Of a DNA stretch of 64,000 bases, positions 31,466 to 41,021 are shown piece after piece. The DNA is from Hydrolagus colliei (taxonomy: Eukaryota): NCBI GenBank assembly GCA_035084275.1, contig CM068743.1:43772001-43836000 (forward strand), read 5' to 3'. The position numbers were made by a program, and so were the translations under genes. Numbering within the stretch: the stretch's first letter is position 1; each line of letters opens with the position of its first letter. The notes beneath the pieces are model-generated. The model searched no databases. It saw only the letters and a program-made list of their open reading frames with translations, and was not told where the DNA came from.

Positions 31466-34035
31466 GGGTTCTAGCCCCATGACAGGACTTTGAGCTCAAT
31501 CTACATTGACATTCTTAATACAAAAAGACAGCAGAGGAATTTGTCTTTGTGTCCTAGCCAACAATTTCCCAAATAAAATAAATTCAAGGTTGTGTCTGGG
31601 ACATTGTATCCTCACCCCTACCAGGCTCTGCTCTCTGAAACCTTGCAAGGCTTCATCGGCTCCCTGTCACAGAATGGATTGGTTTTAACATCCTCACTCT
31701 CACTTAATACCCTGGCAGCTATTTCTATCTCGCTCTGTATCTCTATATTTCTATCTTTATTACCTGAATTATTTACCTCCCTCGTGAATAATTCAGGTAA
31801 ATTTGTTTTTTCTAGAGGAAATTGCATCCATCTGTTGGAGCAAATGCAATGAGCACCTTGCTTCTTTGTTGTCTTATAGGTCTTAGCTGTAGCTGCTAAA
31901 TAAATGGCGTGTAAATATCTGTCTCGAAGTGGCCCCACCTGGCATTGACATTTAATTGAAGCAAACAAAGTGTCTCTGAGAGATTTCCTTCAGTTAATTG
32001 ATCTACAGGGACTGGATGAGGACTCTACAATTATCTGTGTTTTCCATTCTAGAAAGGTCGCCAGTATTTCACTACTAATGATTGAAGGGAGGAGGGGGTT
32101 TGATGGGGGAAATAATAGCTTGTGACTGTATTGAAAAAGAGAATCAAGTTATTCCTCAATCCAAGTTCAAGTTAAACGAAACAGCAGATGTTGTTTAAAA
32201 ATAAATGAAACATATTGTATGTTGCTCTGCAGCTTTAATGATGTCTTTGTGAACCAAGCAAAAAAAAAGTAGCAGGGCATTACAGAAACCAATTGCACAG
32301 ATTGTCCAATTTAGTTGCATTGTGCCTAAATTTGCCTGTTGACAGCTGATTTATGAATAATCTACAGAATACCATTCTCTAATGAAATGGTTTATTGCAG
32401 ATGCATTCAAATCATTTCTGTTTGTGAAAATATAATACTTAGGCTCCTTAGGGTGAGTTTGGGTGGAAAATATGTTCTTCTGCCGGATGCTCTCGCTCGC
32501 TTGAAAGTCTAACCACATTTCTCATACACCGAGCAGAGACCTACTGGAATGAGTTGCAACTGGAGTGAGGCAAGACCAGAGTGAGAAGGAATTGGGTGAG
32601 AGTGGGAATTAGGTGCAGAGAGGGAAGAAGGTGCTAAGTGAACTGTATAAATAATTTAGAAAGTAAGTAGAAATGACAGCACACGGAGTGTCGGGAATGT
32701 GGGAGTTAATGGAATGTGAGACTGTCTTGAACCATTACTTCTGCAGGAAATATCTCTGGCTTGACACTCTCCGACTCAGAATTATTGAGCCGGAGTGCAA
32801 GTTAGACGCACTCTGAGAAATAAGTAAGTGGTAGAAATTTCTGGATAGGTTTATCCTGAACTCAGTCATACCCCACAGGAAAGAACATGTACAGGAAACG
32901 GAGGTCACTACTGTCAGTAAGAAAGTTAGTGGGAACCTAGGAGAGGAAGAGAAGGACGTCTCATAGACAGTGGTCCTGTCCTACAAGAATGATGCACTCG
33001 ATTCCTTTGAGCAAAAGAAGAATGACTGTGGACTAAGATACAGTGGAGCAGAAGGCTGTCCAAAGTGGAGAAGAGCAGAATATAAATGGACTAGTGATAA
33101 GGGATTCAAATATAGCATCCTCTGTAGCCAAGAATGGGAGTCCCATCAGTGTGTTGCCTACCTCATATCAGGGTAAGGAACATCTCTAAGCTGCTGGAGA
33201 GGAATTTGGAAAGGGACTGATCCAATTGTCGTTGTCTATATTGGGGCAAACAATATGGAAAAGAACACAGAGTGGGTCCTACAGAGGGAGTTTCAGGAGT
33301 TAGGAACTAATTGAAAAGACAGGACCTCAAAGACAACAATCTCTGGATTACTACTCAAATCCCATGCAAATTGGAATAGGAGAAACAGATTAGGAAAGTT
33401 AATGATAGGCTAAAGGATTGATGTGGGAAAGGAGGGTTCCACTTCATTGTCACCAATACTAGGAATAGGAATAGCTGTACCAATGGGACGAGCACCACCT
33501 GGACCAAAGGGAACCAAAGGGTAAATAGGGCCGTGGCAAAGGCTTTAAACTCATAAATGTGTGGGGGAGGGATCATATTGAAATGACTCAAACCAGACAA
33601 AAGTAAGAAATAAGGAGAATATAAATAGTCAGGGAATTAAAACAAATGTAGAATGGAAGTGTGAAAAGACTGTCATAAATAACGCAAGAGGAACAATTAA
33701 TAATAATAAACTAAACTATCTATACAGCAATGTACACATCATCTGAAATAAAACAGGCGAACTGGAGGCAATAATTCGTAGTGAGGAACCAGATATAGTT
33801 GGGATTACTGAAAGGTGGTTATACAATGAACAGGTCTGGCAATTAAACATTGCAGGGTATAACATTATCAGCAAGGATAGAGATTGGAAAAAGGATGGTG
33901 GAGTTGCCGTACTTATTAGGGATAACATCACAGTAGTAGAAAAAAACCAGACAAAATAAATTGGCTAGATGTAGCAGAAAAAGGGAATAAGGGAATGGAA
34001 TTCCATTAATGTGTATGTACTCCTTTTGTACACAG

Positions 34036-35108
34036 TAGGGTCCGTCAATATGGAAATTTTCCGATTTAGATATATCGATGGACTCATATCGAGATATACC
34101 GAAATATCGATATTTTTGGGTTTTTTGTACTGCACATGCGCGCGTCACACGCGCATTCGGGGTGCGCGCGCATTGCGGGTGCGCGTGCATTTTGGGTGCG
34201 CGCGCATTCGTGGCCTATCTTCTAAGGAGGTAAATATCTTTCTCTCTCTGTGTCTCTCACTCTCTCCATCTCTGTGTTTTTCTGTCTGTGTGTCTCTGTG
34301 TTTCTCTCCCTCTCTCCTCTCTCACATCCCCCCCATCTCTATCTATCGGTATATTATCAGATCCACCCCGTCTCTCCCCCCCCACCCCTCCAACCGTCCC
34401 TCTCTCGCACCCCCCACCCCCGTCATCTCTCTCCCCCATCCCCCCCAGCCATCTCTTTCTCCCTCCCCCCCCAGCCGTCTCTCTCCCCTCCCCCCAGCCA
34501 TCTCTCTCCCCTTCCCCCCAGCCTTCGCTCTCCCCCCTCCCAGCCGTCTCTCTCCCCCTCTCCTCCCCCCCCTGCCGTCTCTCTCCCCCTCCCTCCAGCC
34601 GTCTCTCTCCCCCCTTCCAGCCGTCTCTCTCCCCCTCTCCTCCCACCCCAGCCATCTCTCTCCCGCTCCCTCCAGCCGTCTCTTTCCCCCTACCGTCTCT
34701 CTCCCCCCCCCCAAGCCGTCTCTCTCCCACTCCCCCCAGCAGTCTCTCTCCCCCTCTCCTCTCTTCCAGCCGTCTCTCTCCCCCCCCCCAAGCCGTCTCT
34801 CTTCCCCTCACCCCCCCCCCCACCTAGCCGTCTCTCCCCCCCATCCACCCCCACCCCCATCCCTTGCATACCTGTATATTGTATTCTAGGACTATGAATA
34901 CAAAATGGCGGCTTTGCACCTCGGTCTGTGCATTGTATATAGAGATGAGCATTCTGGGTCTTGTAGTTCAGTGTGCTCGCATCCCGATTTTTTACCTCGA
35001 CATATTGATTTTTCTATATATCGATTTTTTTTTAAATGTCTATATCGGTGTATCGATATGAAAATTATATCGGGTTTTAGTGATATATCGATATATCGCC
35101 GAACCCTA
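34036..35108 (+). mobile_element. Non-autonomous hAT DNA transposon, copy 1 (1073 bp)
   Basis: 8-bp TSD GTACACAG (34028-34035 and 35109-35116); imperfect TIR TAGGGTCCGTCAATAT / ATATCGCCGAACCCTA; subterminal ATCG/CGAT repeats; no transposase ORF. Confidence 0.95.
34365..34862. repeat. C-rich minisatellite (core cccagccgtctctctcccc) inside hAT copy 1
   Basis: Many tandem variable-length units; extreme pyrimidine/purine strand asymmetry. Confidence 0.95.
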
Positions 35109-35168
35109 GTACACAGTATCTCAACAAATCAACAAAGGGGCAATTTCTGCTGGATTTAGTAATAGGAA

Positions 35169-35477
35169 ATAATAATAATAATAATCCTTGCATTTGACAT
35201 AGCACTTTGCATGTCTTCTAGACCTCTCAAAGCACTTTACAGAATGTACTGTAAAGTAAATTGCTGGATTATTTGTGGACTAAATGCGGCAGATAATTGT
35301 GCACAGCAGTTTCCCACAAACAGTCATGGATTGAAAATTTACCATTTTTTTTAGGAATTATTATCAGGTGTGTGGAATAAGGAAACTTGCAGAAGGTTTC
35401 GGCCTGACCTGCCTGGAATCAAACCCAGGTCTCTCGCTTGTAAGGCAAGTGCTCTAACCACTGAGCTACAGGACTTC
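35169..35477 (-). mobile_element. Full-length tRNA-derived SINE inserted in CR1
   Basis: Minus strand gtagctcagtggttagagcacttgccttacaagcgagagacctgggtttgattcc head; Deu-like core; (att)n tail; AGGAA duplicated at 35164-35168 and 35478-35482. Confidence 0.92.
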
Positions 35478-37611
35478 AGGAATGAACCAGAGCAGATAAG
35501 ATAAGTACACACAGGGGAACAACAGCGATCATAACTTAAGAAGGTTTAAGATAATGATTGAGAAGGGCATCCATATGACAATGACCAGGATAATAGATTG
35601 GGTAAAAAGCTAACTTTGAGGGGATGAGAATGGAAGATGGAAAAATAAACTGGAAAACAGTAAAGGCAAACAAAGTACTGTAATAGAGCAACAGTGGGAA
35701 ACATTTAAAACAGTGATCAATAGAGTTTCAGAGAAATCTATTCTGGGAAAAAACAAGATAAAGCTAATTAACAATGAGGCACCATAAATGAATAAAGATA
35801 TAAGGGCAAAGTTGAGACACAGGAAAGAGGCATTCTCTAACTATATAAACAACTAGGAAGAGCATTACAAAAAAACACAAAGAGGTTAGGAAGATAATAA
35901 AACAACAATTAGGAAGGCAAAGAGGAACTTTGAAATTTAATTATCAATAAATGTAGAAAGGAACAGTAAAAATTCTACAGACATATAACTAAAAAAATAT
36001 TAAATAGGAATAGAGCCACTAAGGGGTGCACAAGATAAGCCGCGACAGCGAAATGGCAAAAATATAAAATAATTATTTTGTCTCAGTATTCACCAGGGAG
36101 ACGGATCAGATGGACATGAATGTAGAAAAAGAGATCAAAAATAGTATAAATCCATTTAAGATAAAAAGGGAGATATAATCAAAACAATAACGAAACTCAG
36201 AGAGGATAAAACCCTGGTCCAGATGGATTGCATCTGGGTATATTAAAAGAATCGAGGAAATAAGTAGTACAGGCACCATATCCCGGGTATAATAACTCAT
36301 TACAAAAGGGAGTAGTGCAAGAGGACTACTCTCATACGATAGCTAATGTTATTACTATATTTAAAAAGGGAGATAGAACAAGCCCAGGGAACTATGCACT
36401 TGTTAGCTTAACATCGGTGGTAGGAAAGATAATGGAATCCTTACTAAAGGATGTAATAGAAAAGCATCTAGAAATGGAAAACATAATAAACTATAGTCAT
36501 CACGGATTTCAAAAAGGGAGGTGATGTTTGACGAACCTCATTAAATTATTTGAAGGGGTAACAGAAAGAGTAGACAAGAATAATATGGTAGATGTGATAT
36601 ATTTAGATTTCTAAAAGGCGTTCAATAAGGTATCATGTAATAGACTAATGAATAAGGTCAGAGCATGTGAAGTCAGGGGAAAAGTAGTAGAATGGATAAC
36701 AAGCTGGCTACAAGACAGGAAACAGAAAGTAGGGGTAAAGGATAGCTACTCAGAGTGGCAGTGGTGTTAACAAGAATCGGTATTGGGATAACTGTTGGTC
36801 ACAATATCCATTAATGATTTGGACTCGGGAATCAACATTACAATTTAAAAATTTGTGGGCAAGACCAAATTGGGGGGAGTAGTTATTACAGAGGAGCACT
36901 GCAACAAACTACAGCAAGACATTAATAAACTTGTTGAATGGGCCTTTAAATGGCAAATGTATTTAAATGTAGAAAAGTGTGAGGTGGTAAATTTTGGTAG
37001 GAGGAATAAGGAAGTCATATACACCCTGGAAAATAGAAACTTATATGGGGAAAATGAGCAAAGAGATCTAGAAGTACATGTGCACAATTCACTAAAAATA
37101 GTTAATAAGGCCATAAAACACGCAAACCAGGGGTTGGGGTTCATTTTTAGAGGGACAGAAATGAAAAGCAGGAAGTTATGGTAAACTTATATAGAACCTT
37201 GGTTAGACCACACTTAGACTCCTGTATGCAGTTCTGGTCCCCACATTATAGAAAGGTTATAGAGGCACTGGAGAATGTGCAAAGGAAGTTCACTAGGATG
37301 ATCCCAGAACTGAGAGGTTATAACTATAAGGAAAAGCTGAATGTTCTTAGGTTATTTTCTCTTCAAAAGTGGAAAATATGGGGGGATCTGATCTGTCTTT
37401 AAAATGATTAAAGGTTTTGATAGGGTAGATATAGGGAAGATGTTTCCGCTTGTGGGGGAGACCAAAATTGGGGGCCATTAATATAAAACAATCACAAATC
37501 GAGGAGGGAAGTTAAAATAAATTATTTATGCAGAGTGTTGCGAACGTGGAGCTTGCTAACACAAGGAGTTGTTGAGTCAAGCAGCATAGATGTATGTAAG
37601 GGGAATACAAC

Positions 37612-38880
37612 AGATACAACAATTTGTATTTATATAGCGCACTTCACACTGGATGGCATCTCAGAGCACTTCCCAATAATCGAATAGGAGGGTCACAAGG
37701 TGGTACTTCAAAGAGGCTAGGGAGGGGACAACGCAGAAGAACTGTGGGATGGAGTTCCAGAGGTTGGGGGCAGAGTGGCTGAAGGCTTGCCCGCCAATGG
37801 TGGAGCCAGTGGGTTGGGGGACGTGGAGCAGGCTGGAGGCTGCTGAGCGGAGGCGCAGGCAGGTTGGAGTTGAGTTAGGTGGTCGCAGAGGTAGGGTGGG
37901 GTGAGGCCATGGAGGGCTTCGAAGGTGAGGACCAGGATCTTGAATTGAATCCTCTGGGTGATGGGGAGCCAATGGAGTCAGGCAAGGAAGTGGGAGATGG
38001 GGTTACGAAGCTTGGAGCGGTGGAAGACACAGGCCACTGAGTTCTGGATTATCTACAGCCTATGGAGGGAGGGATTGGGAAGGCCAACAAGCAGAGTGTT
38101 GGCGTAGTTGAGCCGGGATATGATGAAGGAGTTTCAGTGACCTGAGGGGTGAGGTAGTGGCTGAATATTGCGGAGGTGAGGTAAGGCAGAGCAGGTCATT
38201 GCTTGGATATGGGGGAGGAAAGACAATTGAGGATCGAACAAGAAACTTAGGTTCCTGACTGGCTTGGTGAGGTTGAGTCTGCCTCGGTCTTGTTAACGTT
38301 CATCTGTAGAAAGTTAGCTCTCATCATTGGTTTCTGACTGGCTGTCGGTCAGGACAGCAGTAGTCCGGGAGTTGAGAGTAGAGGCATAAAAATAGAGTTG
38401 GGTGTCATCCGCATACATGTGGAAGTAGACCCCATATCTGCGGATGATGTCACCATGGAGAAGCATGTAGATATTGAAATGTACTGGGCCAAGGATAGAA
38501 TCCTGGGTGATGCCACAGGTGACAATGCGTGGGTTGGAAGAGAAGCCATTTGTGGCCACAACGTGGAGATGGTGAGAAAGGTAAGAGTCGAACCAGGCAA
38601 GGGCAGTTTCGTGAAGGTTGAGCTGAGAGGAAAGGTGGTGCAGGAGGATGCAGTGGTCGACAGTATCAAAGGCAGCAGTGAGGTCAAAGAGGATAAGGGG
38701 GCTGAGAGAGTCCTGATCAGAGATGTTTAAAATGTCATTGGAGACTTTGACCACTCCTTTCTCCATACTATGAGCAGCACGAAAGCCGGATTGTAGGAGT
38801 TTGAAGAAGGTATGGCGAGAAAGAAAGTAGTGAAGCTGGGAAGCAACAATTCATTCCAGGGTCTTAGAGAGGAATGGGAG
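37612..38880 (-). mobile_element. L2 LINE fragment (RT to 3' end)
   Basis: Peptides LPFLSKTLE, FDLTAAFDTVDH, FHMYADDTQLY and AFSHSAPNLWNS; L2 tail at 37612-37670. Confidence 0.93.
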
Positions 38881-38993
38881 TAGAAAGGGTACTGGGAATC
38901 TGGAACTCTCTTCCCAAAAAATCTGTGCATGTAGGACCCTTTCAAATATTCCACACATAGATGTATAGATTCTTGTTGGGTAAGGGTATAAAG

Positions 38994-40530
38994 TAGGGAA
39001 CGGCGATATATCGGTATATCGGTTAAACCCGATATGATTTTCATATCGGTATGCCAATATAGACATTTTAAAAATACCGATATATCGAAAAACTGTATAT
39101 CGAGGTAAAAAATGGGGATGCGAGCACAATCAACTACAAGACCCAGAATGCTCATCTCTATACACAATGCACAGACCGAGGTGCAAAGCCGCCATCTTGT
39201 ATTCATAGTCCTCGAATACATAATACAGGAATGCAAGGGGTGGGGGAAGAGAGACGGCTGTGGGTGGGGGGGGTGAGGCAGAGAGAGACTGCTGGGGGTG
39301 GGGTTGAGGGGGAGAGAGACTGCTGGGGGGGGGGGGGGGTGAGGGGGAGAGAGACGGCTGGGGGGGGTTGAGGGGGAGAGAGACGGCTGGGGGGAGGGCG
39401 AGATAGACGGCTGGGGGTGAGAGGGGGAGAGAGACGGCTGGGGGTGGGAGAGGGGGAGAGGTATGGCTGGGGTGGGGAGAGGGGGAGAGGTACGGCTGGG
39501 TGGGGAGGAGAGGGGGAGAGAGACGGCTGGGGGGAGGAGGAGAGGGGGAGAGAGACGGTTGGGGGGAGGGGGAAATAGACGGCTGGGGTGGGAGAGGGGG
39601 GAGAGACGGCGGGGGGGGGGGAGAGGGGGAGAGAGACGGCTGGGGGGGGCAGAGGGCAGAGAGACGGCTGCGGGGGGGAGAGGGGGAGAGAGACGGCTGT
39701 GGGGGAGAAGGGGAGAGAGATGGCTGTGGGGGAGAGGGGGAGAGAGATGGCTGGGGGGGAGAGGGGGAGAGAGATGGCTGGGGTGGAGAGGGGGAGAGAG
39801 ACGGCTGGGGGTGGTGGTGGAGAGAGATGGCTGGGGGGGGAGGGAGAGTGATACGGCGGGGGGGGGGGGGGAGGAGAGGGAGAGAGAGACGGCTTGGGGG
39901 AGAGAGACGGCTGGGGGTGGAGGGAGAGAGAGATGGCGGGGGGGGGGAGGAGAGGGGGAGTGAGATGGCTGGGGGGAGGGGGAGAGAGACGGCTGGGGGG
40001 GGGGAGAGAGAGAGACGGCGGGGGTGGGGGGGTGGAGAGTGGGAGAGAGACAGCTGGGAGGAGGGGGAGAGAGACGGCTGGGGGGGGGGAGAGAGAGAGA
40101 CGGCGGGGGTGGGGGGGTGGAGAGTGGGAGAGAGACAGCTGGGAGGAGGGGGAGAGAGACGGCTCGGGGGTGAGGGAGAGAGAGACGGCGTGGGGGGGGG
40201 GGGAGGGAGAAAGAGACAGCTGGGGGGGTGGTGGAGGAGAGAGACGACGGGGGTGGGGGTTGCGAGAGAGGATGTGATAATATACAGATAGATAGAGATG
40301 GGGGGGATGTGAGGGAGGAGAGAGGGAGAGAGACATAGAGAGACACAGACAGAAAAACACAGAGATGGAGAGAGTGAGAGACACAGCGCGCGCACCCGGA
40401 ATTCGCGCACACTCCGATGCACGCGCGCATGCGCAGTACGAAAAACTGAAAATATCGGTATTTCGGTATATCTCGATATGAGGTAACCGATATATCCATA
40501 TCCGGAAAATTCCCATATCGCCGTTCCCTA
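38994..40530 (-). mobile_element. Non-autonomous hAT DNA transposon, copy 2 (1537 bp), inverted relative to copy 1
   Basis: Perfect 16-bp TIR TAGGGAACGGCGATAT / ATATCGCCGTTCCCTA; 8-bp TSD GTATAAAG (38986-38993 and 40531-40538); non-repetitive ends colinear with copy 1. Confidence 0.97.
39238..40262. repeat. G-rich minisatellite (core ggggagagagacggctgggg) inside hAT copy 2
   Basis: About 1 kb of tandem variable units; reverse complement of the array in copy 1. Confidence 0.95.
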
Positions 40531-41021
40531 GTATAAAGTAATGTGGTGTTAAGGGCAGGTAATTGGAGTTGAGGTACAGACCAACAATGATTTAACAGAA
40601 TAGCAGAACAAGCTTGAAGGACTGAATAGCCTATTCCTATTTCTGTGTTCCTATGACAGTCCAAGGTTTGAAGATAGAGTTACAGGCCGAGTAGTAGAGG
40701 GCAAAGGTAGTTGTGGTGGAGAGATGGCGAAGAGCGTGGACAAAGAGGAATGTGTTGAGGGACCTTAAACGTGTTGAGAGAAAGAATGAATCAAAGATTG
40801 AAATTCTGGATAGTGGAGGCAAAAAGCTGAAAGCCAGACCACTGATATTGGGGCATGAAGCAGGCCCATGCTTGCTGAGTAGAGGGAGCAAGTGGGTTGG
40901 TAGGGTGGGACTTTGGATGAAAATTTAAAAGGGCTTCACCGTATATACTGTAAAGTGTAATGACTGTGTATTTGTAGGCAAGGTGTTGAGGGTGCAGTGT
41001 TTTCTACAGATAATAATATTA

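Follow-up and report, generated by a model that had tools for sequence, protein, structure and literature searches.

Two places in a 64,000-nucleotide stretch of the Hydrolagus colliei genome (G000:C2:43,772,001-43,836,000, here called the window; assembly size 1.003 Gb) hold copies of a transposon whose body is a G-rich minisatellite. They raise the question of what kind of element this is, what moves it, and whether the array goes on changing in length after a copy has been inserted. A sequence-only reading of the window had proposed a non-autonomous hAT family that seeds hypervariable tandem arrays across the genome. We consider it probable that the copies represent a non-autonomous hAT family of the Ac type, several thousand copies strong, which is likely moved in trans by an autonomous partner and carries a G-rich minisatellite whose unit number rises and falls within individual copies, likely through replication slippage and unequal exchange. 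The array would be a passenger, with no evident job for the element.

The two copies and their family

Both copies begin and end with TAGGG terminal inverted repeats (TIRs) and are flanked by exact 8-bp target-site duplications (TSDs), just as the sequence-only reading had it, at 34036-35108 and 38994-40530. That reading had also described conserved ends of about 250-330 bp and G-rich centres of about 0.5 and 1.0 kb; the left ends of the two copies align over ~245 bp, the right ends align over ~250-325 bp, and the arrays measure 498 and 1,032 bp. The features of the two copies are as follows.

34028..34035 and 35109..35116, plus strand: TSD of copy 1, GTACACAG, exact on both sides
34036..35108, minus strand (that of the G-rich strand): copy 1, non-autonomous hAT of the older TAGGGTC-TIR subfamily, 1,073 bp
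34036..34051, plus strand: right TIR of copy 1; CGATAT-type subterminal repeats run on from it to ~34110
34150..34210, no strand: CG-rich 17-bp tandem in the right arm of copy 1
34366..34863, minus strand: 498-bp G-rich minisatellite of copy 1, made up of ~17-19 GAGAGACGGCT(G)n units
35093..35108, minus strand: left TIR of copy 1
38986..38993 and 40531..40538, plus strand: TSD of copy 2, GTATAAAG, exact on both sides
38994..40530, plus strand: copy 2, non-autonomous hAT of the younger TAGGGAAC-TIR subfamily, 1,537 bp
38994..39092, plus strand: left TIR and subterminal repeats of copy 2, with 88-90% identity to the left end of the autonomous elements L067 and L070
39093..39237, plus strand: putatively captured segment of copy 2, without counterpart in the autonomous element
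39238..40269, plus strand: G-rich minisatellite of copy 2, 1,032 bp, ~35 units
40012..40181, plus strand: 85-bp block of three units, duplicated in tandem and private to copy 2
40515..40530, minus strand: right TIR of copy 2

The TIRs of copy 1 are TAGGGTTCGGCGATAT and TAGGGTCCGTCAATAT, and copy 2 has TAGGGAACGGCGATAT at either end; the TIR pattern has three matches in the window against 0.15 expected, and none of 100 shuffles reached three. Subterminal repeats are asymmetric, the motif CG(A/G)TAT occurring 11 times in the left 120 bp of copy 2 and six times in the right 110 bp. The units of both arrays measure 24-35 bp and consist of GAGAGACGGCT(G)n and a GA spacer, and the G-rich purine strand noted at the outset is 85-86% purine and 64% G, with longest G runs of 11 and 15. 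The CG-rich 17-bp tandem differs in length among copies and has related sequence in the autonomous element.

Two samples of the family were drawn. The similarity-picked sample came from left-end searches with 1,752 and 2,777 candidates, from which all 39 other top candidates of the first search and 20 of 39 of the second were taken, giving 59 copies, or 61 with the two in the window. The systematic sample comprises 40 of the first 100 listed matches of a motif outside the array, taken at fixed steps and all on C1. One locus (L086) was dropped as identical to L039, and length statistics leave out L024, whose right end comes from another element, as well as L008, L034 and L037, which are without a right end. 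Both ends were found in 58 of 61 copies, with the 8-bp TSD exact in 47 and showing at most one mismatch in 52; among the 36 systematic copies with both ends, 24 have an exact TSD. The consensus of the exact TSDs is nTnnnnAn (38 of 47 for T at position 2, and the same number for A at position 7), which is the 8-bp target pattern described for Ac-family hAT elements in the cited accounts (PMC8961557, PMC10368747), and the TIR length of 16 bp is in keeping with that family. The family is thus a non-autonomous, non-coding hAT, as had been proposed, and of the Ac type; this assignment is made by TSD, TIRs and the domains of a partner with the same ends.

A junction 17-mer has 5,984 exact matches genome-wide and no control matches, and since the exact junction is present in 28 of the 40 systematic copies, we estimate the family at ~8,500 copies. 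The young TIR 16-mer has 4,127 genome-wide matches; the TIR quoted in the sequence-only reading belongs to the younger subfamily only, which contributes 4 of the 40 systematic copies. The array itself recurs across the genome as expected, for a G-rich body is present in all 59 similarity-picked copies and in 39 of the 40 systematic ones. The fortieth systematic copy, L110 (G000:C1:20.27 Mb), is interrupted by an internally deleted element of the autonomous type that is nested within it.

Array length runs from 78 to 2,550 bp in the systematic sample and from 200 to 1,673 bp in the similarity-picked one, with unit numbers from 2 to ~90 across the family, and six of the 40 systematic copies have seed-only arrays of 2-4 units. 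The non-array part has subfamily medians of 461 and 490 bp; constant flanks thus enclose a variable array. Like MITEs (miniature inverted-repeat transposable elements), these elements are non-coding, TIR-bounded and of high copy number, and they have no match to the partner's coding region, but their whole length of 588-3,064 bp departs from the short, uniform, ~400-bp form described for the classical MITE (PMC9659126). No free-standing array was found in the first 21.6 Mb of C1, where each of the 39 clusters of arrays is tied to element ends, 31 through coordinates and eight through alignment. One 2-kb array (L121:2377-4400, G000:C1:13.40 Mb) has runs of ~11 identical variant units and a missing left end, and abuts what we take to be a Tigger-type coding fragment.

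Change of the array within single copies

Array length changes within individual copies. Identical left ends enclose different arrays (for example, 411 versus 888 bp), and a comparison of array length difference with end divergence, along the lines first suggested for the window, showed no relation (rho 0.03 and -0.08). Units are alignable and ordered between copies. When the k-mers of 57 copies were analysed with G runs collapsed, 15 of the 57 had a private k-mer present twice within that one copy, and 117 of 787 twice-seen k-mers were confined to a single copy, against 16.6 expected. In copy 2, a 33-mer of the duplicated 85-bp block has exactly two occurrences genome-wide, both inside copy 2. 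Similarly, a 21-mer of L031 occurs exactly twice genome-wide, 573 bp apart and both times within L031, whose 573-bp duplicate blocks later diverged by four unit indels, with five of 15 paired units identical.

The same insertion site was found on two contigs, as L008 and L010, which are either alleles or paralogues. The flanks of the pair differ by 82 mismatches and three gaps of 18-24 bp in 9,674 columns (98.5% identity), and the 0.75-kb arrays by at least four unit-level differences; a script counted eight events, one of them an end effect and some more plausibly altered units. Per kb, the event rate of the array is ~17 times that of the flanks. Substitution rates are of the order of 10^-8 per generation, and if that value is assumed, the array changes at ~5-8 x 10^-6 events per generation, a lower bound that comes from this one pair. 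Eighteen units still pair in order between L008 and L010, so the comparison is not saturated. Because an 84-bp tandem array of zinc-finger-like period (L078:1039-1985 / L079) adjoins the insertion, L008 and L010 may lie in a duplicated cluster as paralogues and not be alleles. The proposal that the transposon seeds variable arrays therefore stands as far as length change in single copies is concerned, in both the private duplications and L008/L010, whereas the word hypervariable is not supported, since a rough estimate of the rate lies about four orders of magnitude below that of the human minisatellite CEB1 and units keep their order and alignability from copy to copy. Shared left flanks of L006/L009/L025 and of L033/L035 were also considered as duplicates and rejected, being separate insertions into other repeats.

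The partner, the proposed growth of the array and rival explanations

An autonomous partner with the same TIRs, whose existence had been anticipated, was found among hAT dimerisation-domain matches, 136 in number, of which 18 were retrieved. It is represented by eight elements of 4.8-5.7 kb with three exons, two of the eight being cut or interrupted. These elements have the same two TIR types as the small ones, TSDs that are exact or near-exact where both ends are present, and ends with 73-90% identity to those of the small elements over ~100 and 150 bp. They encode zf-BED and Dimer_Tnp_hAT domains, and their nearest named homologues are ZBED1-like (31-50% identity), Hermes being a weak match (E 5e-4). 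In L063, the transposase retains D178, D245, CxxH, RW and E609. The shared ends and parallel TIR variants suggest that the family is likely moved in trans by this BED-domain hAT.

The middle of the small element has no match to the partner and was likely captured from elsewhere. The partner has a purine tract of its own (L063, L064, L065, L069 and L070), with a GGAGAGAAGGAG unit, 93-99% purine and 366-1,205 bp long, which lies 3' of the transposase gene on the same strand as the small element's array and is unrelated to it in its unit. The reading of the array as a piece of the autonomous element was rejected, since the partner tract has another unit and GAGACGGC occurs in none of the five tracts measured. 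Array-less short elements with these TIRs and TSDs (L064:9174-9461, L060, L068 and L028:3929-4276) have also moved, and the array is therefore dispensable for mobility.

We suggest that the ends of the family would derive from the autonomous element and the middle from a capture elsewhere, and that a short seed of two to four units (a G run plus AGAGAC/GGGACGGC, ~80-120 bp) would have grown in successive master copies, with younger waves spreading the longer arrays. After insertion, arrays would drift up and down at a moderate rate through slippage in G runs, gain and loss of units and block duplication. G-quadruplex (G4) folding, itself predicted, may add to this instability, by analogy with CEB1 in yeast as reported in the cited account (PMC6409989).

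For the ages of arrays, subfamilies were split by TIR type only, a split by 'old/mid' markers having been dropped when the markers failed to separate clades; the tree was midpoint-rooted, and eight of 92 copies without the anchor, copy 2 among them, were left out. The median array is 696 bp in the young TAGGGAAC wave (n=36) and 421 bp in TAGGGTC copies (n=48; p=4e-5), with terminal branches of 0.007 and 0.024, respectively, and seed-only copies are among the longer-branched copies in the tree. An older relative (L038:2427-3790) has the same backbone and a different unit, a G run plus AGAGAC. The longer young arrays, the long-branched seed copies and L038 together fit with seed growth through successive masters. 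Within the young wave, arrays span a tenfold range (163-1,622 bp), and those at its lower end indicate that arrays shrink as well as grow. In L038 the left end, which derives from the parent, is also longer, and there is a long GATA/GATGTCTA run; the same seed has here taken another course of expansion. In contigs from a second organism (run X15), the ends and the captured segment are deeply covered and the array start barely so, a pattern of cover that hints at a lineage-specific long array.

Purine-rich arrays are also found in at least three other inverted-repeat families in 484 kb of sequence examined, which makes them common in this genome and not peculiar to the hAT family. An unrelated TA-flanked inverted-repeat element, presumably Tc1/pogo-like, encloses a purine array of GGCAGGGA type that varies in length, 260-350 bp (L016:4037-4676 and L034:1514-2140); a third inverted-repeat family has GATAGAGAGGAGGGGGG-type arrays of 243 and 425 bp (L057:1080-1965 and L083:1020-1975), and one further inverted-repeat element contains two different G/purine-rich arrays (L009:3766-4349).

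The differences in length could have arisen mainly during transposition, by error-prone repair of the donor gap or through many masters, with inserted arrays nearly stable. In hAT elements, internal rearrangement is known to result from the repair of gaps left by cut-and-paste, and the subfamilies do have their own typical array lengths and their own first and last units. However, the duplications hold substitutions private to the copy in which they are found, the duplicated blocks of L031 kept diverging, and the single insertion site of L008/L010 exists in two versions that differ by whole units, all of which makes this account unlikely. We find it highly improbable that assembly or sequencing artefacts of the G-rich repeat explain the differences. 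Long G runs are error-prone and L008 stops at a contig edge, but the arrays consist of units with distinct substitutions in conserved order, and the L031 blocks are only partly identical, unlike what a collapse or expansion error would give. Moreover, the array start was found in contigs from another sample (run X5) of this organism. One contig of that run crosses the junction of copy 1 by 23 bases only, too short a reach to show alleles.

Another possibility is that the array is functional, with G4 folding or promoter-like words raising copying or transposition and longer arrays being favoured later. The longer arrays of younger waves would fit such a role, as would the autonomous element's own purine tract in the same orientation and the purine arrays of at least three unrelated TIR families. 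Yet elements that share the TIRs but hold only a seed, or no array, are flanked by TSDs and hence have moved, one young wave contains the tenfold range of lengths, and the units are not alike between families; we judge a functional array to be decidedly unlikely. A wider form of the idea is that, in this fish lineage, unrelated families (the small hAT element, the autonomous one it derives from and at least three other TIR families) each independently grew a purine- or G-rich array because it aids copying, for example by G4-driven fork stalling and gap repair, with the longer young arrays reflecting selection at the level of the transposon. This we regard as unlikely; if it were true, the ~8,500 dated copies would constitute a natural experiment on the birth of G4-prone minisatellites.

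Several points also weigh against our own explanation, in which a passenger array grows through successive masters and changes within copies. In the systematic sample alone, array length and the age proxy show no significant relation (rho -0.29, p=0.11, n=33), and the order from seed to long array depends on a tree that was rooted at its midpoint and is weakly resolved internally. The seed copy L099 sits on a short branch, so contraction could account for some of the short arrays. A private duplication may date from a donor copy that jumped later, which would still be one lineage; the contig-end location of L008 counts here as well, and G-run lengths may contain sequencing error. As to the partner, none of the eight copies examined, which come from 18 of the 136 domain matches, has a fully intact transposase. 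Two of the eight have an open spliced frame, but L063 is without a start codon and L069 without the first catalytic Asp, so any present activity of the partner is putative.

Predicted structures, known systems and neighbouring features

G4Hunter gave the arrays a mean score of 1.83, and 79-82% of their 25-nt windows score at least 1.5, versus 0.8% elsewhere in the stretch. Eight non-overlapping G4 motifs are predicted in the array of copy 1 (loops up to 12) and 13 in that of copy 2, and at least two in each of the 33 systematic copies analysed. The i-motifs suggested at the outset, and any causal role for them or for G4s, are likewise putative. A special G4 design was rejected, since the score is not above that of same-base shuffles (1.90 and 1.94). 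The suggestion that the arrays are prone to triplex formation was not borne out: neither array contains a perfect purine mirror repeat with arms of at least 10 and a spacer of at most 8, which leaves triplex formation unsupported, and the median purine run in the arrays is 4-5 bases.

TIR elements with variable internal tandem arrays are a known kind, and this family is itself apparently undescribed; in the literature searched we found it nowhere described, nor any hAT carrying a G4-prone array, and an entry may exist in Repbase or Dfam, which that search did not cover. The cited accounts of miDNA4, a Tc1/mariner MITE of Xenopus tropicalis, and of Xmix/Xstir of X. laevis likewise describe TIR elements whose internal tandem unit is present singly or in variable number and has spread genome-wide (PMC9659126, PMC12628747). 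Here, by contrast, the carrier is a hAT and the unit a 24-35 bp G-run minisatellite, and whereas miDNA4 and Xstir give rise to free-standing satellites, none of our 39 clusters is free. DTC84 of the clam Donax trunculus, as portrayed in its cited description, is also a high-copy family in which the flanks form a cassette for ordered repeat variants in variable number, making each copy unique; it has at most five core repeats, and its target duplication is AA, whereas our family has 2 to ~90 units, an 8-bp TSD and a hAT partner (PMC3879986). The central variable-number tandem repeat of the hominid SVA elements is non-autonomous, GC-rich, G4-predicted and length-variable, and the cited account makes younger subfamilies longer or more G4-prone (PMC3667099). 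However, SVA is a LINE-1-dependent retrotransposon with demonstrated length alleles (PMC3667099), while ours is a DNA transposon in which variation is seen between copies. Mobilisation by long interspersed nuclear elements (LINEs), a poly(A) tail and a TSD of variable length are SVA-type features, and the present family has TIRs at both ends and a TSD fixed at 8 bp.

Hermes and hobo, Ac-family hAT elements, share with our family short TIRs, subterminal repeats and an 8-bp nTnnnnAn TSD, and with its partner a BED-domain transposase, according to the cited sources (PMC10368747, PMC8961557); they differ in that our family is non-coding with a putatively captured middle and that its partner is distant from Hermes and nearest to ZBED1-like proteins. 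CEB1 is likewise a G-rich, G4-prone tandem array with variant units (PMC2360154, PMC6409989). Its mutation rate, given in one of these sources as 0.083-0.156 per paternal transmission (PMC2360154), amounts to 8-16% against a rough ~10^-5 per generation here, and the repeat studied here is dispersed by a transposon.

With at least 6,000 copies, a mean array of ~440 bp and ~8 predicted G4 motifs each, the family would contribute ~2.6 Mb of minisatellite and ~46,000 predicted G4 motifs to a 1-Gb genome, as a lower bound. It keeps arrays of seed-only, medium and long size between ends that can be dated, and so offers thousands of replicates for the origin and change of G-rich minisatellites, and possibly a large set of length markers. 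Nothing known is overturned, since transposon-borne variable arrays have already been described in frogs, clams and primates.

The captured segment of copy 2 contains words that we take to be ZNF143/THAP11-like (39133-39151) and YY1-like (39188-39199), and both also occur in the matching part of copy 1. A splice-donor-like CAG|GTATG stands directly before the array. These promoter-like words and CAG|GTATG could be a captured gene promoter and the start of a first intron. Among 36 longer reading frames scanned, of 169 in the window, only RVT_1 was matched, and decayed LINE pieces surround both copies, with RVT_1 at 38317-38850 and a weak RVT_1 match at 36264-36521.

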